Of a stretch of 64,000 nucleotides of DNA, positions 27,273 through 63,660 are shown one piece after another; the first letter of the stretch is position 1, and each line of letters starts with the position of its first letter. The stretch spans positions 20,216 through 84,215 of the forward strand of contig CAVGWA010000001.1 of the NCBI GenBank assembly GCA_963632935.1, written 5' to 3'. Under the pieces are notes generated by a model. The model saw only the letters and a program-made list of their open reading frames with translations. It had not been told where the DNA came from and made no database searches. Position numbers and translations under genes: made by a program. Origin of the DNA: Oscillospiraceae bacterium (lineage in GTDB: Bacteria > Bacillota_I > Bacilli_A > RF39 > UBA660).

Positions 27273-27799
27273 AAATTTGACTTTAGAATAAAAATATGGT
27301 ATAAGTAAAGTAATCATTTAATTGATTATATTTAGTCCTTAACGGACACCTCAGTTTCTTTTGAAACTGTACTTGGCTTTTTACAAGCACTTAAGATACC
27401 ATATTTGGTATCTTTTATTTTATATAAACACATATAAAATTCTAAAAAAAGAAATTTACTAAACATTAATAATCAATGTCTAGTAAATAAATCAAAACTA
27501 TATAAAGTTCAATATTTAATCGATAGCTTTGTAATAGTTTATAAAAATCATCAAATTTCATAAAAACCTCCTAACGGAGAAAATATTATAATGTAAATTT
27601 AAAGATAATTAAAAACTCTCTAGCTGGAACTAGAGAGCAAATGAAAAATTTAAGCCACCAACTTAGCAAAAATAGGATTGAAATCAATACTATAATTGCA
27701 TACTATAACATACGATGCATATAAAATACAATACATATGCTACAATACAATTTTTCTATATAATTGTATCATAAATTTATTAATAAAGGAAGTGCTATA

Positions 27800-29308
27800 A
27801 TGAAAAAACAAATAATATCTGAATTTATTGATTGGTTAAAAAAAGAAAACTTATCTATAACCAATTTAAATGCAAAAAATACAATTGCTATTTATATTAG
27901 AGTATCAACTAACAAGCAAGAAGAATTAAGCCCATTAAGCCAATTAAAAGAGATATATAAATATGCTGTAAGAAATAATTATCAAATTGATATAAATCAA
28001 ATTTATGTAGAAGAGGAAGGTATAAGTGGTAAACATGCTGAAAAACGTAATGAATTTCAAAGTATGATTGCACACGCTAAATCTAAAGAAAAAGAATTTG
28101 ATACTATTGTTGTGTGGAAATTTTCAAGATTTGCAAGAAACCAAGAAGAAAGTATTGTTTATAAGAATATGCTTAAGAAAAACAATGTTAACGTTGTAAG
28201 TGTATCAGAACCTATCATAGATGGTCCTTTTGGCAGCCTGATAGAGCGAATTATCGAGTGGATGGATGAATACTACTTAATACGTCTTTCAGGTGAAGTT
28301 ACACGTGGAATGACCGAAGCAGCCAATCAAGGTCGTGTTCTTAGTACAGCACCGTTTGGATATCGTAATGAAAATAAAAAATATATAATTCATGAAGAAG
28401 AGGCGAAAATAGTTAAATGGATTTTTGAAACTTTTGTAGATGGAAAAATGAGCCAAATTGAAATGGCTAGACATATTAATAATCTAGGATTTAAAACCAA
28501 AAGGGGAAGTAAGTTTGAAAATAGAACTATTTCATACATTTTATTAAATCCGACGTATACTGGTAAAATACGATGGACGCCTAATGGAAAACTCACAAGA
28601 GAAGAACTATATAATAATACTAAATCAATTATAACAAAGGGAACACACGAGGCAATTATTAGTGAAGAATTATTTAAAAAGGCAAATGAAAGACTAAAAG
28701 AAAACAGGAAGTTCATGCACTCACATGAACATCACACAAAAATATGGCACTGGATGAAAGGTTTAATAAGATGTGAGTGTGGAAGGACATTTGTTAGAAC
28801 CAGTGGAAAATTACGCTGTAATGGGTATAATAAAGGTACTTGTACAGCATCTGATAGAATAGACTATAATGAAGTAGAATGCCTTGTTTTGGAACAATTA
28901 AAAAGAGATAGCACGCATAAAATAGCAATTGAAAATATAGTACAATCAAAAAAAGAGTCTAAAAAGACAAATGATCTAGAATATGAGGCACTTAAAAATT
29001 TAGAAAAAAAAGAAGAAAGAATAAAGGAAGCTTATCTTAATGGAATAGATTCATTAACTGAATATAAATATAATAAACAAAAGATACAAAAGGAACGAGA
29101 AATATTATTACAAAAAATAGAAGAAAATACAGAAAAAAAAGAAGATATTTCTATTGAAGAAAAGATAAGTGAAAACTTAAAAACCATCTACGAAACGCTT
29201 ACTGATGATAATGTAGATATAAAAAAGAAGTATGATATTGCCCATAGATATATAAACGTAATTACTTATAAAAGCGGCGTTTTATACATGAAATATAACG
29301 ATTTTTAG
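27800..29308 (+). CDS. large serine recombinase (prophage integrase, SpoIVCA/SprA-like class). Probable start at MKKQII (27800); the ORF is open from 27764.
   Basis: N-terminal resolvase domain AIYIRVSTNKQEE...S with catalytic Ser. Recombinase and zinc-ribbon regions and C-terminal coiled coil. Ends 20 bp from the attR core. Confidence 0.9.
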   Translation: MKKQIISEFIDWLKKENLSITNLNAKNTIAIYIRVSTNKQEELSPLSQLKEIYKYAVRNNYQIDINQIYVEEEGISGKHAEKRNEFQSMIAHAKSKEKEFDTIVVWKFSRFARNQEESIVYKNMLKKNNVNVVSVSEPIIDGPFGSLIERIIEWMDEYYLIRLSGEVTRGMTEAANQGRVLSTAPFGYRNENKKYIIHEEEAKIVKWIFETFVDGKMSQIEMARHINNLGFKTKRGSKFENRTISYILLNPTYTGKIRWTPNGKLTREELYNNTKSIITKGTHEAIISEELFKKANERLKENRKFMHSHEHHTKIWHWMKGLIRCECGRTFVRTSGKLRCNGYNKGTCTASDRIDYNEVECLVLEQLKRDSTHKIAIENIVQSKKESKKTNDLEYEALKNLEKKEERIKEAYLNGIDSLTEYKYNKQKIQKEREILLQKIEENTEKKEDISIEEKISENLKTIYETLTDDNVDIKKKYDIAHRYINVITYKSGVLYMKYNDF

Positions 29309-29328: not shown

Positions 29329-29339
29329 TATGGTGGACC
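29329..29339. repeat. attR core TATGGTGGACC, with putative crossover GG at 29335-29336.
   Basis: Identical to 935-945. The cotJC reading frame resumes through it. Confidence 0.8.
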
Positions 29340-29802
29340 CGCTGGTGAGCTTGCGGCTGCGTTTCAATATTTAGATCAACGTTATAATATGCCTGATGAT
29401 CGTGGTAAGGCTTTACTTACTGATATTGGTACTGAAGAGTTAGCTCATGTTGAGATTATTTCAACTATGGTGTATCAACTTATGAAAGGTGCGACTAAGG
29501 ACGAACTTTTAAAGGCTGGCTTGGATGGAATGTATGCTCAATTTGGAAGGGATTTATTTCCTTCTGATGCGATGGGAAATCCTTTTAATATGAGTTATAT
29601 TAAAGTTTCTGGTGATTATATTGCTGATTTGGAAAGTGATATGGGAGCGGAACAAAGAGCGCGAGCTACTTATGAACATTTGATGGATTTGACCGATGAT
29701 GCTGATATTTTGGGACCACTTTCTTTTTTAAGACAAAGGGAAATTATTCATTATCAAAGATTTAAGGAATTGCGTGATTATTATTTAAGTATGAAAAAAT
29801 AA
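29330..29802 (+). CDS. cotJC: 3' segment of cotJC (manganese-catalase-family spore coat protein). Conserved sequence resumes at ...YGGPAGELAAAFQYLDQRYNMPDD. The ORF-track Met at 29314 is fortuitous.
   Basis: Strong similarity to CotJC/Mn-catalase (GELAA..YL.QRY, EEL.H.E.I). The reading frame across the reconstructed attB is continuous with 851-946. Confidence 0.85.
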
Positions 29803-40918: not shown

Positions 40919-41443
40919 TTGAAAATGAAACAATTTGGAATCATTAGACGAATAGATGAGCTTGGGAGAATTGTAATTCCAAAAGAGATGAGAAGGGCTT
41001 TAAGAATTAAAAATGGGGATAGTTTAGAAATATTTATTGATAGGGAAAATATAGTTTTGAAAAGGTACTCAGAGATAAATGAATTTTCTGATTTGGCTAG
41101 GGTTATTGTTAATTTGATTGGGAATTATTTGAAGTGTGATGTTTTATTATGTGATACAAATTGTTATTTATTTGGTTCTGGCGATGGAGGAAAAAGTTAT
41201 ATAAATAAAAATGTAAGTAATGATATTATTGATATTTTGGAAAAAAGAAAGTTAGTTAGTAGGGATAATGTTTGTTTGATAGGCAGTGAAAGTAGGGAAG
41301 GAGAGTTTATTATAAATCCTATTGTTTCTGGTGGTGATGTTTTAGGCGGAATTATTGTATTTTGTCCTGATGAGTTTACTTCTGATAATATAAATATACT
41401 CAATTTTGGATCTAAAATTTTAGAAAGACATATTGAAAACTGA
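40919..41443 (+). CDS. spoVT: stage V sporulation protein T (AbrB-type N-terminal domain plus GAF domain).
   Basis: GIIRRIDELGRIVIPKEMRRALRI closely matches B. subtilis SpoVT N-terminus. GAF-like C-terminal domain ending GPIV..GD..G.IV.F. Confidence 0.8.
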   Translation: MKMKQFGIIRRIDELGRIVIPKEMRRALRIKNGDSLEIFIDRENIVLKRYSEINEFSDLARVIVNLIGNYLKCDVLLCDTNCYLFGSGDGGKSYINKNVSNDIIDILEKRKLVSRDNVCLIGSESREGEFIINPIVSGGDVLGGIIVFCPDEFTSDNINILNFGSKILERHIEN

Positions 41444-41454
41444 TATTAAAAATG

Positions 41455-41660
41455 TTATAATTACCGTGAAATGCGAGGAAAGAAAGAACGGTAGGTAACT
41501 TTATAGAGAGTTTATGTTTGGTGGAAATAAACAAGGTGACTATCTTAAATGGCTCTGGAGCAGTCTAACTATGTTAGAACGTAATCACACGTTACGTGTT
41601 TGAGGTAAGTTTTCTTACAAATTAAGGTGGTACCACGTTCAAAACGTCCTTATATATAGG
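41455..41660 (+). promoter_or_regulatory. T-box riboswitch leader upstream of metG.
   Basis: Conserved T-box sequence AAGGTGGTACCACG at ~41626-41639 followed by terminator/antiterminator. Leader about 200 nt. Confidence 0.7.
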
Positions 41661-53035: not shown

Positions 53036-53050
53036 ATCTTCTCCTAAATA

Positions 53051-53132
53051 AAAAGGTACACACAATTAGTGGGCCTTAAGGCTGCTATCTTCCGATTCTG
53101 ACCTGATTCAACCATAATTGTTGTACCTCTTT
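53051..53132 (-). ncRNA. ffs: small-type signal recognition particle RNA (4.5S-like, ~80 nt).
   Basis: Minus-strand sequence AAUCAGGUCAGAAUCGGAAGAUAGCAGCC matches the conserved SRP domain IV (CAGGUCAGGUCCGGAAGGAAGCAGCC). It is closed by a GGUACAACAAUUAUGG/CCACUAAUUGUGUGUACC stem and a U-tract. Conserved location between tadA and upstream genes. Confidence 0.7.
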
Positions 53133-53209
53133 AATAATATAACATTTTTTTCAAAAAATCAACAAATAGTCAACATGTTAATAAGTAGTTTTCCACAGTA
53201 TTTCTTTTT

Positions 53210-53225
53210 TGTTTCACGTGAAACG
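53210..53225. promoter_or_regulatory. parS site 1, TGTTTCACGTGAAACg (15/16 to consensus).
   Basis: Match to ParB/Spo0J binding consensus TGTTNCACGTGAAACA. Confidence 0.75.
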
Positions 53226-53428
53226 TTAGTGTTGTAAACTCCTTTTGTTACTTGTTAATAATGTTGTAAATTATTTTATTTAAACATAATTATCATACTT
53301 TTACATTTTTTCGGTTTGTAATAGTCATTTAAATATGTATATCAATATTTTTTTATTAAAATTAAACATTTCTTGTTAAGAAAATTTATCTTAGTTGATA
53401 TGCATTATCAAGCTTGATGTTTAAACAA

Positions 53429-53444
53429 TGTTTCACGTGAAACA
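53429..53444. promoter_or_regulatory. parS site 2, TGTTTCACGTGAAACA (16/16, within a 20-bp perfect palindrome).
   Basis: Perfect consensus parS. Confidence 0.85.
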
Positions 53445-53705
53445 TTAGTACTGTGGATTATTAATTAATATTTAATATGTTTAATCTTTATTACATTTTC
53501 TGCAAAATCCATATAATTTAGCTATTTTTTATGTAAATTGGTACTAGAATAAGGAAAAATATAATTTTTCTTTTATTTTATTATATTGTTAAAATATTGG
53601 ATTGAATATCTAGTGTAACCTAAGTGTTTTATTCACAATTAAAAATAGATAGAAAATTATTTGTCTTTTTTATATAAATAAAAAACAATTTTATTTTTGA
53701 ATTAA

Positions 53706-53721
53706 TGTTTCACGTGAAACA
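53706..53721. promoter_or_regulatory. parS site 3 (16/16, within a 24-bp perfect palindrome).
   Basis: Perfect consensus parS. Confidence 0.85.
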
Positions 53722-53829
53722 TTAATGCTGTGGATTATTTTTACTATTTAATAGTACTACTGATGGTAGAATAGGAAAATATATTTTTTATGTTTTATAA
53801 TAATAAAATTCACTTGATTTTAACACTAA

Positions 53830-53845
53830 TGTTTCACGTGAAACG
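53830..53845. promoter_or_regulatory. parS site 4 (15/16).
   Basis: Match to parS consensus. Confidence 0.75.
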
Positions 53846-54058
53846 TTAGTGTTGTGAATTCCTTTTGTTACTTGTTAATAATTTTGTAAATTATTTTATT
53901 TAAACATAATAATCATACTTTTACATTTTTTCAGTTTGTAATAGTTATTTAAATATGTATATCAATATTTTTTTATTAAAATCAGACAATTCTTGTTAAG
54001 AAAATTTATCTTAGGTGATATGCGTTATCAAGTTTGATGTTTAAACAATGTTTCACGT

Positions 54059-54074
54059 GAAACATTAGTGCTGT
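54059..54074. promoter_or_regulatory. parS site 5 (16/16).
   Basis: Perfect consensus parS. Confidence 0.85.
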
Positions 54075-54294
54075 GGATTATTAATTAATATTTAATATGT
54101 TTAATCTTTATTATATTTTCTGTAAAATCCATATAGTTTAGCTATTTTTTATGTAAATTGGTACTAGAATAAGGAAAAATATAATTTTTCTTTTATTTTA
54201 TTATATTGTAAAATATTTGGTTGAATATCTAGTATAACCTAAGTGTTTTATTCACAATTAAAAATAGATAGAAAATTATTTATTTTTGAATCAA

Positions 54295-54310
54295 TGTTTC
54301 ACGTGAAACA
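54295..54310. promoter_or_regulatory. parS site 6 (16/16).
   Basis: Perfect consensus parS. Confidence 0.85.
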
Positions 54311-54376
54311 TTAATGCTGTGGATTATTTTTTTGTTTTTAATATAAAAAAGAACGAATATAATATTCGCTCTGCTA

Positions 54377-54392
54377 TGTTTCACGTGAAACA
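54377..54392. promoter_or_regulatory. parS site 7 (16/16), 2 bp beyond the gyrA stop codon.
   Basis: Perfect consensus parS. Confidence 0.85.
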
Positions 54393-54394
54393 TA

Positions 54395-56866
54395 TTAATT
54401 TGTTGATTTAGTTGATTCTTCTTTGATGTCCTCAGTTGGTAATTCTTCTGTATCTTTTTCTAGTAGGGCTATGCTACTCACTTTTTGATTATCCTTTAGA
54501 TTAATTAATCTGACTCCTTGTGCAACTCTTCCGGTTGTTGAAATTTGTTCAATTGGTAATCTAATAATTATTCCACTATCAGTTATAATCATTAAATCTT
54601 CATCCCCATTTACTAGTTTAAATGATACAATATTTCCGTTTTTATCCGTTATATTAAGAGCTTTTACGCCTTTGCTACCTCTATGAGTCATTCGATATTC
54701 ATCAGTATTTGTGCGTTTTCCATAGCCTTTTTCTGTTACAACTAATATTTGTTGATTTGATTGAGCTATTTCACAGCCAACACAGTTTCCATCTCCAAGT
54801 TCAATTCCTTTAACTCCTGAGGCAGTTCTTCCCATGATTCTGATTTCATTTTCATTAAATCTAATCATTCTACCATTTGAAGAAGCTATTATTATTTCAT
54901 TTTCTCCAGTTGTTTTCTTTGCTGATATTAACTCATCTCCGTCTTTTAAATTTATGGCTATTTTACCATTTGATCTTATATTTTCAAATTCACTTAAAGC
55001 GGTTCTTTTTATTAATCCTTTTTGTGTACAAAATACAATATTCTTACATTCTTCTTCATTGCTTACTTTAAGCATTGTTTTTACTATTTCGTCTTTTTCT
55101 AATGGTAATAAGTTAACAATTGGCAAACCTTTTGATTGTCTACTATATTGTGGTATTTCATATCCCTTAACTCTATATACTTTTCCTTTGTTTGTAAAGA
55201 ACATTAAATAATCATGCGTTGTCATTGATAATAATTTTTCCACATAATCATTTTCGTTTGTTGTCATTCCTTTAATTCCAACACCACCACGATTTTGGGT
55301 TTTGTATGTATCTGATGTCATACGCTTAATATAACCTTTATTTGTTAATGTTATAACGATGTTTTCCACAGGTATTAGTGATTCATCTTCTATATAGTCA
55401 ATTGCTGTCATATCAATGTTTGTGCGTCTTTCATCACCATATTTATTTTTGATTTCTAGCATTTCATTTTTAATAATTTCTAATATTTTTTCTTCGGAAG
55501 CTAATATTTCTTTATACATTTTTATTTTTTCTAGCAATTCATTTAATTCTGCTTCTATTTTATCTCTTTCTAAACCTGTTAAACGTCTTAATTTTAATTC
55601 AAGAATGGCTTCTGCTTGAACAAGTGTTAGACTATATTTTGCTGTTAATTTTTCTTTCGCTTCTACATCTGTTTTAGCTTCTTTGATAATTTTGATAAAA
55701 TCATCAATATTATCAAGTGCTATTTTATAACCTTCTAATATGTGAACTCTTTTTTCAGCTTTGTCTAAATCAAATTGTGTTCTTCTTGTAATTACTTCTT
55801 TTTGATGATCAATATATTTTGAAATAATATCTTTTAGTCCTAATGTTCTTGGTGTTTTATTATCTATCATAAGTAGGATAATACTATATGTTGTTTGAAA
55901 TTGTGTATGTTTATATAAATTATTTAAAACAACTTGTGGATTAGCATCTTTTTTCAAAGTAATTGTTATTTTTATACCATTTTTTAGGTCCGTGTGGTAA
56001 TCTGATATACCATCTATTACTTTTGTATGAACAAGTTCTGCAACTTTATTTTTAAGTTCTGATGTGTTTACTCCATATGGTACTTCATCGATTATGATAT
56101 AATGTCTTCCATTTTTTTCTTCGATTGTCGCTTTACTTCTTATTGTTATTGTTCCACGGCCTGTTTCATAGGCTTTTTTTATACCACTATTTCCTAGAAT
56201 TGTTCCACCTGTTGGAAAATCTGGACCTTTTATATACTGCATTAGACCAAGTGTATCAATTTCTGGATTATCTATGTATGCTACACAGCCATCTATTACT
56301 TCACTTAGGTTATGTGGTGGAATATTTGTCGCCATTCCAACTGCAATACCCATTGTTCCATTTACTAATATATTTGGAAAGCGAGAAGGTAGAATTGATG
56401 GTTCTTTTTCTGATTCGTCAAAGTTTGGTTCAAAATCCACAGTATTTTTTTTAATATCTCTTAGTAATTCTAATGATATTTTTGAAAGTCTTGATTCTGT
56501 GTAACGCATTGCTGCCGCACTAGATCCTGCAATATTACCAAAGTTTCCATGTCCATCTACAAGCATGTATCTATAACTAAAGTCTTGAGCCATACGAACC
56601 ATTGCTTCATAAATACTAGAATCTCCATGTGGATGGTATTTACCCATAACATCTCCGACTATACGAGCACTTTTTTTATGTGGTTTATCTGGTGTATATC
56701 CAGATTCATACATTGAATATAATATACGACGATGAACTGGTTTTAAACCATCTCTTAGGTCGGGTAGGGCTCTTGATTTGATAACACTCATGGAATATTC
56801 TATGAATGAGCTTTCTATTTCACTAACGATGTTATTTTCTAATAATCTATCTCTTGTGTGATCCAT
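54395..56866 (-). CDS. gyrA: DNA gyrase subunit A.
   Basis: Active-site region AAMRYTE, QRD region (YHPHGDSS), C-terminal beta-pinwheel repeats. 823 aa. Confidence 0.95.
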
Positions 56867-56876
56867 AAGTTACCTC

Positions 56877-58802
56877 CTATACATCTAAATTTTCCGCATA
56901 TTGTGCGTTTTCTTCTATAAATTTTCTTCTTGGTTCTACTTCTTCACCCATGAGTTTTGAAAAAGCTTCATCGGCTGCCATAGCATCTTCTACTGTTATT
57001 TTTCTTAAGGTTCTATGGTTTATATCCATTGTTGTTTCATTTAATTCTTCTGGGTCCATTTCACCTAAACCTTTCATACGCATGATATCATATTTTGTAT
57101 TAGGATTTAGTGAAGCTATATATTTGTCTCTTTCTTCTTCATTTAAAACATATTTTATTGTTTGACCATGTTTTATACAGAATAGGGGAGGCTGAGCAGC
57201 ATAAATGTGACCGGCTTCTACTATTGGTTTAAAGAAACGATAAAATAGTGTTAGTAATAATACTCTTATGTGTGAGCCATCAACATCGGCATCAGTCATT
57301 ATTATAATTTTATTATACCTTAATTTAGACAAATTAAATTCTTGCCCAATTCCTGTTCCAAAAGCTGTTATGATTGTTCTTATCTCTTCATTTGATAAAG
57401 CTCTATCTATTCTTGCTTTTTCCACATTTAAAATTTTACCTCTTAGTGGAAGAATTGCTTGTGTCATTGAATCTCTACCTTTAACGGCTGATCCTCCGGC
57501 ACTATCTCCCTCGACTATAAATATCTCACATTTTGATGGATCTTTATCTTTGCAATCTTCAAGTTTTCCACCGAAATTAACTACATCAAGGTCACTTTTT
57601 CGTCTAGTAAGTTCTCTTACTCTTTTGGCTGCGATACGTGCTCTTGCAGCTGTCATATTTTTATCAATTATTACTTTAGCTTCGTCTGGGTGCTCAAGAA
57701 GATATCTTTCAAAACCTTCTGAAAATACTTTGTCTGCTAATTTTCTTACTTCTGAGTTACCTAATCTACCTTTTGTTTGTCCTTCAAATTGTGGGTTAGG
57801 ATGTTTGCACGAGACTATCATTGTAAGTCCCTCTTTTACATCTTCACCACTTAGGGAAGAATCCTTTTCTTTTAAGATGTTATTTTTTCTAGCGTAATTA
57901 TTGATAACTCTTGTTAAGGCTCTTCTAACTCCTTCTTCATGTGTTCCTCCATCATGGGTATTTATGTTGTTAACAAACGAATAAATACTTTCTGAATAAT
58001 CTGTACAATATTGCATTGCTACTTCAAAAAATACACCTTCATCTTCGCCGTCTAGGTGAATTATGTCGCTTTGAATAGGTGTTTTATGTTTATTTAAATA
58101 TTTAACATATTCACTTATTCCACCTTCATAGTAAAATACATCTTGAAGTTTGTTATCTTCATCTCTTGTGTCTGTTAAAGTTATTTTTAAGCCTCTATTT
58201 AAGAATGCTAATTCTCTTGTTCTGGTTTTTAGGGTATCATAATCAAATATGTCTGTATCAAATATTTCTGCATCTGGTTTAAATGTTACCGTTGTACCAG
58301 TTTTTTCGATATTGCAATCGCCAATTTCAGTTAGTTTTTGTTTTATTTTGCCACCGTTTTCAAATTTGGCTTCATATATTTTACCATTTTTATATACAGT
58401 AACATCAACCCAAGATGATAGGGCATTTACAACTGAAGCTCCAACTCCATGAAGTCCACCTGATACCTTATATCCACCACCACCGAATTTTCCACCCGCG
58501 TGGAGAACTGTATATACTGTTTCTACTGTGGAAAGTCCTGTTTTTGGATGAATTCCTGTTGGAATACCACGTCCGTTATCTTGTACGGTGATGGAATTTC
58601 CTTTATTTATTGTAATTTCAATATGATTACAATATCCAGCTAAAGCTTCATCTATACTGTTATCTACTATTTCCCATACTAAATGGTGTAGGCCTTTGAC
58701 ATCTGTTGTTCCAATATACATTCCTGGTCTTTTTCTTACCGCTTCTAGACCTTCTAGAACTTGAATGTCGGATTCGTTGTAGTGCTGATTATTTTCGTTC
58801 AT
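56877..58802 (-). CDS. gyrB: DNA gyrase subunit B.
   Basis: GHKL ATPase motifs ([16 protein letters not shown]), Toprim [17 protein letters not shown]. 641 aa. Confidence 0.95.
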
Positions 58803-59914
58803 TTTTCCACCTCTTTTATTATTTTTCCATCTTTTATATGGATTAATTTAGCTTTGGATAGGAGTTTTTTATCTATGCTATCTAAATTTGTTGTTGTTAT
58901 TATTACTTGCATGCCACTATCTATGTAGTTTAATAAATTATTTTTTTTATTATTATCTAAATCACTAAATACATCATCAAGTAATATAATAGGACTTGTT
59001 TGTTTATAATCTTTGAATATTTCTATTTCAGATAGTTTTAAGGCTATTACTGCCATTTTTTGCTGTCCCTGAGAGCCGAATTCTTTTACTGAATTGTCTT
59101 CTATGTTGAAGATAAAATCGTCTCTGTGAGGACCATATAATGTTTTTTTTAGCTTCACTTCTTTTTCGTGATTATTTTTATATGCTTGATATAATGTGCT
59201 TTTTATTTCTTCTTTTTCAAATGTTTTTAAATCTATTGATGGGTAATATTGGATGTTAAAATTTTTTATTTTGGCTATGTTTTCATATATTGAAGGACAT
59301 ATTTTATTTAACTTTTCCACATACTTTTTTCGCATTTGATAAATAAAAACACTTTTGTTGATTAAATAATCTGTTAGAATATCAAAATAATTTAAATCAA
59401 TTTTTAAGCCCATGTTTAAATCTTTTAATAATTCATTTCTTGTTTTGAGAAGCTTATTGAAGTCGCTTAATGTTTGGTAATAGTTTGCTGAAATTTGTGA
59501 TAATTCTAGGTTAAAATATTTTCTTCTATCACCTGGAGAACCTTTTATCAAATCTAAATCTTCTGATGAAAAGATAATAATATTCATTTTTTCAATGTAA
59601 TCTGATATTTTTGTTATCACATTATTATCTATTTTTACTGTTTTTTTTGTTTTAGATAAATCTATTTCTAAATTGTATGGTATTTCTTTTTGTAAAGTTC
59701 CTTTTATTATAGCTTTATCTTTTCCTGATTTAATAAGGTTATCGGATGTATATGAACGGTGAGAAGAAGTAAGTCCTAGAATGTATATACTTTCAAGTAA
59801 ATTTGTTTTACCTTGACCATTTTCTCCATAGATGATGTTTATTTTGTCATCTAAATTAATTTTGAGGGATTCGTAATTTCGAAAACTATGCATTTCTATA
59901 TTTTTGATGATCAT
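58799..59914 (-). CDS. recF: DNA replication and repair protein RecF.
   Basis: Walker [16 protein letters not shown]-like signature region. Position between gyrB and dnaN. Confidence 0.9.
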
Positions 59915-60057
59915 AATTTACCTCATTTCGATTTTTAAGCTCTTCATTTTTGATTTATAGCATTTGGCATACTCCTATACCTCATATCCATTATACCATA
60001 AAATAAGGTTAAAAACGCAAAAATAAGCTAATTTTAGCTTATTTAATAAGTATTTTT

Positions 60058-60507
60058 TTATAATTTTCGTTTTTTTAAAACTAATAGTAGTTTTGTTGCC
60101 CTTAGAATTTGATTTTCTAGTGAGGGATATGATATATCAAGGTTTAATTCTGTTCCATTCATGAATGTTATTTTGCTTTGATAATCATTTTTTTCATATT
60201 TTAAAATATTATTTAATGAAATCCAAATGCATTCTTTTATTTCTGGTGAAGTTGTGGGAAAAAATATTATTTCTCTAGTTTCTTCAAGTATTATGGGTAA
60301 TTTGTATTTCATACCTAGTGCATATTTTGATGCTTCATTTCTTCCATTTAAAGTACTTCCATAGTATTTGCAATTATATTTAAGTAATTCCCTCACTGAT
60401 TTGTTTACTATTATTGTTTCATTTCCTGCAATTATTTTTGCTGTATTATTATTTTCTGGCATTATTGCATATGTTTCGCTATTAATCTCATAATTTTTGT
60501 CAAACAT
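60058..60507 (-). CDS. comK: ComK-family protein (competence transcription factor-like). It sits where yaaA (S4-domain RlbA) lies in Bacillus.
   Basis: Collinear motif matches to B. subtilis ComK: YEINSETYAIMPE / YEVNGATIAVLPE; YYGSTLNGR / FFGSSYAGR; IIFFPTTSP...CIWIS / IFLFPTLSS...CGWIS; ITFMNGTELNLDISYPSLENQILRA / VTFSNGKTMELPISYNSFENQVYRT. Confidence 0.55.
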   Translation of the reverse strand: MFDKNYEINSETYAIMPENNNTAKIIAGNETIIVNKSVRELLKYNCKYYGSTLNGRNEASKYALGMKYKLPIILEETREIIFFPTTSPEIKECIWISLNNILKYEKNDYQSKITFMNGTELNLDISYPSLENQILRATKLLLVLKKRKL

Positions 60508-60607
60508 AATCTTCCTCCTTTTTTTGAAACAACTCTCTTATACTCATAATGAATGTCAAAATTTGTTGTTTTTTGTCGATATGGTGGAAAAACTTAAAAA
60601 AAAGAAC

Positions 60608-61729
60608 TTAATATGTCCTAATTGGTAAAATTAGTTGTATTAAGTCGTCATTTTCTACATTTTTAAGAATTATTGGTTTTATTTCTCCGTTAAACATCAA
60701 TTCTATATCATTTGTTTCTAATGATTTAATTGCTTCCATCATATATTTTGAATTGAAGGCAATTTTTATTTCTGAATTATTGTTTTTTTCTATTTCTATT
60801 TTTTCTTCTACATTTCCTATTTCAGGAATATTTGAGGAGATGAGTGCTATATCGTTTGTTGATTCAAATTTTATTGTGTTTTTATCACTTTCATTTGTAA
60901 GAAGTGAGGCTCTATCAATGGCACTATATAAATCATCATATTTAACTTTCATTGTTAATTCAAAATTTTCTGGGATTAATTTAGATGTATCTGGATAAGT
61001 ACCACTTATTAATCTTGTCATCATTGTGATTGTTCCAAATCTGAATACTGCTTTATTTGCAAATATGTGCATTTCTATATCTTTTTCATCATCATTCATT
61101 AATTTAACTAATTCATTTAAATTCTTTGTAGGTATTATTATATTTGAATTTTCTGAGGCTTTTGTATCTAATTTTATTGTTTTAACTGCTAGTCTATATG
61201 AATCGGTTGCGGTGCATTTTATTATATCATCATTTATTTTAAAATTTATACCAGTTAAAACAGGTCTTGTTTCACTTACTGAGGTTGCAAATGATGTTTG
61301 ATTTATTATTGTTTTAAATAGTTTTTGATTTAATGTTATAGGATTTTGATTAAATTCTAATTCTAAATCTGGAAATTCATTTACATTGCTACAATTTAGA
61401 GTGAATGAAGAGTTTTTTGTTGTGATATATAGCTTAGAGTCAATTACTTCTTCTAAATTTATTATTTCATCTGGTAATTTTCTTATTATTTCATATATAT
61501 ATTTACCTGATACAACTATTTCTCCTTTTGTATCTATTTTAATTATATTTTTTTTATCTATAAATGTTTTAATTGATATATCACTATCTGTACTCATTAA
61601 ATACATTCCTTCATCTGTTAATTCAAATTTTATACAGTTTAATATTGGTCTTAAATTTTTGTTTGATATTCCTTTAATTACATAATTTAAATGTTCTAAT
61701 AGAACAGATTGTTTAATTTCTAATTTCAT
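60608..61729 (-). CDS. dnaN: DNA polymerase III beta sliding clamp.
   Basis: 373 aa. Three-domain clamp. N-terminus MKLEIKQSVLLEHLNYV typical. Confidence 0.9.
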   Translation of the reverse strand: MKLEIKQSVLLEHLNYVIKGISNKNLRPILNCIKFELTDEGMYLMSTDSDISIKTFIDKKNIIKIDTKGEIVVSGKYIYEIIRKLPDEIINLEEVIDSKLYITTKNSSFTLNCSNVNEFPDLELEFNQNPITLNQKLFKTIINQTSFATSVSETRPVLTGINFKINDDIIKCTATDSYRLAVKTIKLDTKASENSNIIIPTKNLNELVKLMNDDEKDIEMHIFANKAVFRFGTITMMTRLISGTYPDTSKLIPENFELTMKVKYDDLYSAIDRASLLTNESDKNTIKFESTNDIALISSNIPEIGNVEEKIEIEKNNNSEIKIAFNSKYMMEAIKSLETNDIELMFNGEIKPIILKNVENDDLIQLILPIRTY

Positions 61730-63224: not shown

Positions 63225-63660
63225 ATCCCCCCATATGTGTTTTTTTGAACATCCATTTCCATTTTACATTATTTTTACATTTTTTTCTATAAAAACTGTG
63301 GAAAATAGGTAAAAAAGTTTTAAACATGATTTTATTGTCGAAAAATATCGGTTTATAGTAGATATGCACATATTGTGTGGATAAATAAATTTGCACATTT
63401 GTTGATAAATTATAATTATTCACATATGTTGAAAAGTAGAAAATTGTCTTTTTTATTGACAATTTTTTTGTGTGGAAAATAAAAAAATATAAAACTTAAA
63501 AATTTTATACTGTGGAAAACTCAATATTTGCATTTGGGTTTTATTTGTGTTATAATGCATGTGTTTTTTTTAATTAAATTTTGTTTTAATAAATTGACAT
63601 TTGATTGTTTTATCTATATAATTTATTAAGCAATGTGATTTTTATTTAGGAGGTGGATTT
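63225..63660. promoter_or_regulatory. oriC upstream part / dnaA promoter region with DnaA boxes and an AT-rich tract.
   Basis: DnaA boxes at 63297-63305 (TGTGGAAAA), 63376-63384 (TGTGGATAA, perfect), 63471-63479 and 63511-63519 (TGTGGAAAA), 63416-63424 (TTATTCACA). Very AT-rich stretch 63540-63620. Divergent dnaA and rpmH. Confidence 0.75.

Follow-up and report, generated by a model that had tools for sequence, protein, structure and literature searches.

A gene lying between dnaN and recF in the 64,000-nucleotide stretch of Oscillospiraceae bacterium DNA analysed here (contig CAVGWA010000001.1; hereafter the window) encodes a protein that every sequence test places in the ComK family, with a match far beyond chance. 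This ComK is the short form, comprising what is predicted to be the DNA-binding and oligomerising core only, and its promoter carries three direct repeats in 10-bp phase that resemble 0A boxes, the sites bound by Spo0A. Among related loci the position is an old one, the gene having settled in the dnaN-recF slot before the lineage diversified. Overall we lean, with a little more than even confidence, towards reading the gene as a Spo0A-gated, lineage-specific, resident short ComK of deep uncultured low-GC spore-forming Bacilli.

The ComK-family gene product

The coding sequence was taken from the list of open reading frames (ORFs) in the window.

60058..60507, minus strand: comK-like coding sequence, 149 amino acids, ATG start

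The Pfam profile for ComK (PF06338) matches the product end to end (E 8.4e-40; 136.4 bits against a cut-off of 22.3), with residues 4-147 of the protein paired with positions 2-150 of the 152-position model, and it is the sole Pfam match even at E values up to 10. A reference ComK was found by searching with a B. subtilis ComK sequence, the top match (P0121) being 97% identical to the query and standing for a cluster of 142 sequences from the B. subtilis group that are named 'competence transcription factor ComK'. BLASTP aligns the window protein collinearly with this reference (28% identity, E 1e-24, residues 4-147 against 10-157), and the alignment contains the motifs C..(F/Y)GS...GR, FFPT, C.WIS, TF.NG, and IS..S.ENQ..R. 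The columns that are invariant in both the window protein and the family are C46, G50, G55, R56, FFPT82-85, C93, W95, N132, Q133, and R136. The membership in the ComK family that an initial annotation had proposed from collinear motifs is thereby upheld, and the Pfam search that it had recommended assigned the protein to no other family. No NCBIfam model matches the protein, no solved structure is related to it in sequence, and the PDB is without any ComK structure.

The family to which the protein belongs is large. In a 90%-clustered database 550 homologues were found at E < 1e-3, nearly all of them 147-153 amino acids long and carrying PF06338; a divergent family member used as the query brought 711 further homologues, and a profile search of a 50%-clustered library gave 1,800 ComK-family representatives. 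Homologues in public metagenome-assembled genomes (MAGs) carry the ComK label already, so that the family assignment as such is known and the presence of a competence-regulator homologue at this locus is less unexpected than the initial annotation had held.

Rates of nonsynonymous (dN) and synonymous (dS) substitution were compared among members of the family, dN/dS being computed on unsaturated pairs only (L numbers denote related metagenome loci).

Window against L002: dN 0.011, dS 0.25, dN/dS 0.045
L064 against L070: dN 0.012, dS 0.41, dN/dS 0.03
L067 against L068: dN 0, dS 0.17, dN/dS 0

Ratios of 0.03-0.05 indicate that the comK-like gene is functional and under strong purifying selection. 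Over longer distances the ComK-like protein diverges much faster than its neighbours, as is usual for regulators: in the comparison of the window with locus L005 the identities are 91% for DnaA, 88% for DnaN, 85% for GyrB, and 74% for RecF, but only 53% for ComK. That the ORF might be a chance frame, a decaying pseudogene or a mis-assigned gene of the S4/YaaA type has next to no probability, because beyond the missing NCBIfam match nothing supports it, and the full-length Pfam match (E 8e-40), the hundreds of full-length homologues and the dN/dS values refute it. The strong ribosome-binding site (RBS), the terminator and the confident predicted fold described below count against it as well, as does the lack of any S4 domain in the Pfam search at E up to 10.

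B. subtilis ComK (192 amino acids) and the window protein have in common the family, a collinear core and the motifs CxFFGSS..GR, FFPT, C.WIS, and S.ENQ..R, but the window protein is close to the bare Pfam domain and is without the ∼35-residue C-terminal and ∼8-residue N-terminal extensions of its B. subtilis counterpart. Thus 13 residues follow the xNQxxR motif in the window protein, compared with 46 in ComK of the B. subtilis group. Of 148 representatives of the family, 106 belong to a short class (131-165 amino acids) and 26 to a long one (>180 amino acids), and the tail has a median length of 17 residues in the former and 47 in the latter. FMLYPK in the C-terminal region of ComK is the motif recognised by MecA, and no FMLYPK-like motif occurs in the window protein. 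Because the C-terminal tail is absent, control by MecA, ClpCP, and ComS through FMLYPK is not expected; a tail-less ComK would lack a proteolytic switch of that type, and it may contact RNA polymerase otherwise than B. subtilis ComK does.

AlphaFold2, given the family alignment, yields a confident model (mean predicted local distance difference test score 92, predicted template modelling (TM) score 0.87) with a β-rich core and, at its end, a long helix. When the model was compared with the PDB using Foldseek, the sole coherent matches were LytTR domains (3d6w, AgrA, and ComE), with a probability of ∼1 and TM scores of 0.58-0.63 on the target, although with E values of at least 0.016 these matches are not significant. 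A 2026 preprint likewise groups a ComK model with AgrA-LytTR and with RemA.

Promoter repeats and candidate Spo0A boxes

The region upstream of the comK-like gene contains the following elements.

60551..60580, minus strand: three direct repeats, ATCGACAAAA, AACAACAAAT, and TTTGACATTC, in 10-bp phase, from aligned spacers and a position weight matrix (PWM)
60578-60574, 60568-60564, and 60558-60554, minus strand: repeat cores CGACA, CAACA, and TGACA, in this order
60537..60542, minus strand: -10-like hexamer TATAAG inside the conserved block GAGTATAAGAGAG, from the motif found in 71 upstream regions
60514..60520, minus strand: RBS AAGGAGG, 6 nt before the ATG, read from the sequence; a G-rich RBS is kept in related loci

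An ungapped motif search over 71 non-redundant upstream regions returned a 48-nt consensus, TTCGACAAAATTCGACAAATTTCGACAATTTATTATGGTATAAT, with the layout TTCGACAAAA-TTCGACAAAT-TTCGACAATTTATTATGG-TATAAT, that is, three 10-bp repeats followed by 11 nt and a -10 element; the consensus of the repeat across the family is TTCGACAAAA, three times over, and among 38 loci with TATAA it begins 11 nt past box 3 in 28. With at most 4 mismatches in 15 positions to (CGACA)x3, matches were found in 57 of the 71 upstream regions, against 1 in 1420 shuffled sequences and none in 65 control regions. The exact heptamer TTCGACA is enriched ∼90-fold in the dnaN-comK spacers (3.2 per kb, compared with a density of 0.036 over the other 556 kb of locus sequence), the CGACA core is present there 64 times in the orientation of the gene and 4 times in reverse, and neighbouring boxes are 10 or 20 bp apart throughout, three isolated long gaps excepted. 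A PWM whose training set left out the window and the loci nearly identical to it was scanned over both strands of the 64 kb; it gave the site at 60580-60551 20.0 bits and the runner-up 4.1, the highest score in 30 shuffles was 14.3, and the site is the single three-box one in the window. The repeats are also kept in a clade in which the gene lies beside ligA and away from the origin (see below), which indicates that they go with the gene and not with the origin.

No -35 hexamer stands at normal spacing in the comK-like promoter. The -35-like hexamers that fall in boxes 3 and 2 lie at a distance of 11 and 21 nt, not 17, from the -10 element, and the promoter therefore looks activator-dependent; at spoIIG, too, a -35-like hexamer stands at a non-canonical distance from the -10 element. 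Plain σA -35 hexamers do not account for the repeats, given this spacing and the extra C in TTCGACA. DnaA boxes are also excluded, because the two kinds of site have opposite densities: per kb, oriC regions of the loci contain 10-14 sites of the DnaA type and ≤0.4 of the 0A-like type, and the corresponding figures in the comK spacers are 0.66, no more than background, and 2.6. The DnaA boxes in oriC of the window are canonical and of the TTATCCACA type. The repeats were compared by eye with the consensus sequences of PhoP, CodY, and LexA sites, and none fits.

Read from the opposite strand, TTCGACA becomes TGTCGAA, the 0A-box core in which Spo0A contacts the bases G2, C4, and G5, and dimers of Spo0A~P occupy tandem boxes 3 bp apart, that is, with a 10-bp period. 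The abrB, spoIIG, and phi29/Nf A2c promoters similarly have head-to-tail TGTCGAA-type boxes 3 bp apart that adjoin or overlap the core promoter, with two boxes in each case rather than the three predicted here. Three evenly spaced boxes of this type at the promoter suggest direct control of the comK-like gene by Spo0A, and from these putative 0A boxes we judge such control somewhat more probable than its absence. Under this model multimers of Spo0A~P would bind the three repeats as 0A boxes, and this master regulator of sporulation and stationary phase would turn transcription of the comK-like gene on or, less likely, off. The circuit would be a compact version of the link between Spo0A~P and comK in B. 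subtilis, where Spo0A~P binds PcomK directly, inducing it first and repressing it later. The comK promoter would thus be a direct Spo0A~P target in both organisms, putatively so in the window, although B. subtilis has separate activating and repressing sites in place of one tight triple array. We found no paper describing a triple 0A-like promoter module of this kind.

We also searched for ComK boxes, taking as the canonical criterion two A4N5T4 boxes with a spacer of 8, 18 or 31 bp. Counts in the 64-kb window are those expected by chance (1 compared with 0.7 expected at ≤1 mismatch, and 14 compared with 9.9 ± 3.8 at ≤2 mismatches), so that the scan proposed in the initial annotation proved uninformative in DNA of 28% GC. 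An apparent excess in the dnaN-comK spacers was traced to the terminators of dnaN, with their A-tract, hairpin and T-tract. Two features of canonical B. subtilis-type ComK are missing here, namely the C-terminal region and autoregulation through ComK boxes, none of which were detected at the gene's own promoter.

The repeats might instead be bound by the ComK-like protein itself, in autoregulation, or by a response regulator other than Spo0A that reads direct repeats, and we consider this unlikely, though well worth weighing. OmpR-type regulators read direct repeats of 10-11 bp. The non-Spo0A explanation gains from the autoactivation of the comK promoter by ComK in B. subtilis and from the resemblance of the AlphaFold2 model to the LytTR domains with which AgrA and ComE bind direct repeats; boxes 1 and 3, 20 bp apart, are moreover the best conserved, and a tblastn search with a Spo0A C-domain matched nothing in the window or in any of the loci, as expected for origin-proximal DNA. 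However, on its complementary strand the consensus heptamer reads exactly as the 0A core, it shares the A/T flanks of 0A boxes and the 7+3-bp tandem geometry known for Spo0A dimers, and no second three-box site is present in the 64-kb window, although the targets expected of such a regulator lie outside the window too. Characterised ComK reportedly binds the dyad A4N5T4 and not direct repeats (Hamoen 1998), which also speaks against this alternative.

What a Spo0A-controlled short ComK would in turn regulate is a separate matter. Such a protein would bind AT-rich DNA as ComK does and would regulate a stationary-phase programme, most likely comprising genes that function in DNA uptake and in recombination; that it governs a competence-type regulon is, in our estimate, an even call. 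The initial annotation had raised a non-competence role, and we think it unlikely that the protein is a ComK-family regulator that does not activate DNA uptake, either acting as a repressor or modulator, like the second, truncated paralogues of B. cereus and S. aureus, or controlling other genes in stationary phase or at a stage of sporulation. In favour of such a role, the C-terminal region is absent (a tail of 13 rather than 46 residues), and an autoregulatory ComK box was not found. Removal of the C-terminal 25 residues of B. subtilis ComK abolishes activation of comG in vivo while preserving DNA binding, and B. cereus ComK2 (BC5250), which is naturally 22 residues shorter and lacks the C-terminal region as the window protein does, decreases comG expression. 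S. aureus ComK2 is reported to repress competence when oxygen is limiting, and both ComK2 proteins are modulators or repressors of competence genes and not activators. These paralogues, however, coexist with a full-length ComK1, whereas here the short form alone was recovered, in a fixed syntenic position; as the sole form seen in a large lineage (106 of the 148 representatives have 131-165 residues), it is probably the only ComK there and not an accessory paralogue. Full conservation of the core DNA-binding motifs and a promoter logic that parallels that of bona fide comK also argue for a ComK in the proper sense.

A number of observations weigh against a Spo0A-gated ComK that switches on competence. 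The boxes in the window itself are degenerate (ATCGACA, AACAACA, and TTTGACA), with the full CGACA core in box 1 only, and some sub-clades have CTACA variants, in which a contacted base is altered, or no boxes at all (L040, L043, and L051). As the boxes overlap the -35 region, binding could bring about repression instead of activation. Neither spo0A nor the late competence genes (comG, comE, comF, dprA, and ssbB, and likewise recA) are present in the window or in the flanks that were fetched, and no consistently placed A4N5T4 pair was found upstream of the comK-like gene or of recF in the window and related loci. The C-terminal deletion and the ComK2 data, finally, imply that a core-only ComK may not activate competence. 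On the other side, the window contains the sporulation genes CotJB and CotJC (the latter split), a SpoVT-like gene and YetF, which agree with the initial annotation's view of the organism as a sporeformer and lead us to expect Spo0A in it.

The dnaN-recF locus

The genes on either side of the comK-like gene were assigned as follows.

60608..61729, minus strand: dnaN, the upstream neighbour; ORF, DNA_pol3_beta Pfam match in relatives, tblastn synteny
58799..59914, minus strand: recF, the downstream neighbour; ORF, SMC_N/AAA_23 Pfam matches in relatives, tblastn synteny

The order on the minus strand is dnaA (63221-61875), dnaN (61729-60608), the comK-like gene, recF (59914-58799), gyrB, and gyrA, with rpmH divergent at 63653, and the placement between dnaN and recF given in the initial annotation is correct. 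The compact genome that it had also proposed is consistent with a close relative (DnaA 91% identical) on a contig of 1.39 Mb. In B. subtilis, and more widely in Bacillus, Staphylococcus, and Clostridia, the same slot is held by another small gene, the S4-domain gene yaaA/rlbA, but the window protein, with matches to ComK only, has no sequence or domain relationship to it. In B. subtilis comK itself is at a non-origin locus. No description of this arrangement came up when the literature was searched for ComK in combination with dnaN and recF.

Three relatives of the protein with 51-54% identity (P0058, P0054, and P0031) are encoded in the order dnaA-dnaN-ComK-recF-gyrB-gyrA on contigs of up to 1.39 Mb, as read from precomputed Pfam matches of their neighbours; P0058 is on the 1.385-Mb contig ERZ21563605:contig_20843, and MAGs of the lineage include CAVKUP01, CAVDHX01, and CAKPSB01. 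For a wider survey 80 metagenome loci were gathered with the family alignment and probed by tblastn with DnaA, DnaN, RecF, and GyrB of the window. DnaN is immediately upstream of the comK-like gene in 59 of 69 informative loci and RecF immediately downstream in 46 of 53, both flanking it in 41 of 49, and the arrangement persists where DnaA is only 44-48% identical to that of the window. Departures from it are few: recF is missing beside the gene in L041 and L042, and in ∼10 loci the gene adjoins ligA and gatCAB and not the origin. In a neighbour-joining tree rooted with Bacillus ComK these non-origin copies form a single clade nested among the origin-linked ones, which, with the synteny survey, makes the origin position ancestral and requires one relocation. 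A recent insertion is ruled out by the same two lines of evidence, and 'inserted', the word used in the initial annotation, if taken to mean something recent or out of the ordinary, does not fit an arrangement conserved across a deep uncultured lineage.

In L023, L045, L062, L087, and their relatives the relocated gene stands between ligA (and pcrA/RmuC-type genes) and gatCAB; both known homes of the comK-like gene thus adjoin genes for DNA replication or repair. L002 (CAVDHX010000037.1) comes from a MAG labelled 'Sphaerochaetaceae bacterium', yet it has a Bacilli-type origin region with 96-99% protein identity to the window, and an error of binning or taxonomy probably lies behind the public label.

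Downstream of the coding sequence two further elements delimit the transcription unit.

60011..60044, minus strand: terminator-like hairpin with a 10-bp stem, AAAUAAGCUA/UAGCUUAUUU, and a U-run, directly after the comK-like stop
59990..59998, minus strand: recF promoter, extended -10 element TGGTATAAT, read from the sequence

The hairpin folds with a centroid energy of -8.9 kcal/mol (z -3.4), a terminator hairpin and TGnTATAAT are found in nearly all related comK-recF spacers, and many relatives have a terminator after dnaN as well. With its own terminator and a separate promoter for recF, the comK-like gene is an insulated unit, and recF is not driven from the comK-like promoter.

The leaders on both sides of this unit have features of their own. 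A conserved element, GTATAGGAGTA(C/T), lies in the recF leader at 59970-59980 on the minus strand, ∼10 nt downstream of the recF -10 element, as it does in most related loci, and occurs nowhere else in the window; another conserved block, G(A/C)(G/C)C(A/T)TTAAAA, is found ∼20 nt before the recF RBS. Rfam has no match for these elements, and the recF leader element could be a leader RNA or an operator. In related loci (for example L010, L023, L024, L037, and L087) a hairpin of conserved position and variable sequence, which is absent in the window clade, occurs between the comK -10 element and the RBS. Folding z scores of the comK leaders are below -2 in 16 of 47, with a median of -1.4, and the hairpin, which lies at the 5' end of the predicted comK-like mRNA, may stabilise that mRNA or act in translation. 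A σH promoter downstream of TATAAG was rejected, the GAAT elements being the 3' arms of this sequence-variable hairpin in the 5'-untranslated region.

The position near the origin is most simply explained as history, the gene having entered a rearrangement-resistant cluster and stayed there. The dnaA-gyrA region is the most rearrangement-resistant gene cluster in Firmicutes, so that passive retention is enough to account for the synteny. Deep conservation of the dnaN-recF position, a seven-site parS array 5.7 kb away and a single conserved 0A-like box in oriC-1 of the window clade might be taken to mean that the position is functional in itself, with the dose of the gene following origin copy number or replication stress, or with control by DnaA or ParB. 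In S. pneumoniae an origin-proximal competence regulator subject to gene dosage and ParB spreading provides a precedent, the master-regulator locus comCDE also lying near oriC and parS. We regard a functional role of the position as improbable, since one clade has moved the gene together with its promoter module to ligA/gatCAB and kept it intact, retention in the dnaA-gyrA cluster can be passive, and the promoter repeats are no DnaA boxes. Furthermore, comCDE belongs to an unrelated family, a two-component system with a peptide. Nothing in the data requires coupling by dosage or ParB. A fuller scheme, in which a two-step K-state circuit runs from Spo0A~P to a tail-less ComK without the MecA/ComS switch or ComK-box feedback, has its dose tied to the origin and ParB, and is convergent with pneumococcal comCDE, is a long shot.

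Neighbouring features and implications

The spacer between the signal recognition particle (SRP) RNA (53043-53136) and the gyrA stop at 54395 is free of ORFs and contains, over 1.26 kb (53210-54392), seven copies of the parS palindrome TGTTTCACGTGAAACA at ≤1 mismatch, compared with 0.01 expected. Most copies are followed by the DnaA-box-like sequence TGTGGATTA, and the spacer includes a 620-bp tandem duplication (95% identity), giving an unusually dense centromere-like array beside the origin cluster. Upstream of dnaA, in the rpmH-dnaA region (oriC-1), a single 0A-like box, TTTTTCGACAA, stands at 63336-63342 among canonical DnaA boxes; it is kept in L003, L005, and L019, and it recalls the Spo0A boxes in oriC of B. 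subtilis.

At the other end of the window cotJC is split into two pieces (852-946 and 29329-29802) by a siphovirus-like prophage of ∼28.4 kb (about 947-29328) that encodes TerL, portal, capsid, tape measure and tail proteins, an amidase and a PemK toxin. The product of the 5' piece ends in ...MTQYGGP and that of the 3' piece resumes with (Y)GGPAGELAAAFQYL..., the two prophage ends (936-946 and 29329-29339) share an 11-bp core, TATGGTGGACC, and a gene for a large serine recombinase (27764-29308, plus strand) is located at the junction. The element matches the skin/SPβ class of sporulation-gene intervening elements, and the literature on such elements that we retrieved makes no mention of cotJC. 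A T-box leader (41467-41654, plus strand) precedes metS, and a gene for a SpoVT-like AbrB-family regulator (40919-41443, plus strand) lies immediately upstream of it.

Work on ComK, the textbook competence switch, has been confined almost entirely to Bacillus and Staphylococcus. The analysis identifies a large and purely metagenomic branch of the family, made up of hundreds of clusters at 90% identity, whose hallmarks are a tail-less architecture, a fixed slot in the dnaA-gyrA cluster and a simple conserved promoter module that resembles a triple Spo0A site. The two-step circuit tied to the origin, were it true, would imply natural transformation in reduced-genome, never-cultured gut Bacilli. 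If the Spo0A-gated reading is true, the module would represent a minimal and testable wiring of sporulation control to a ComK programme, and it would offer a handle on the natural transformability of uncultured small-genome gut Bacilli.

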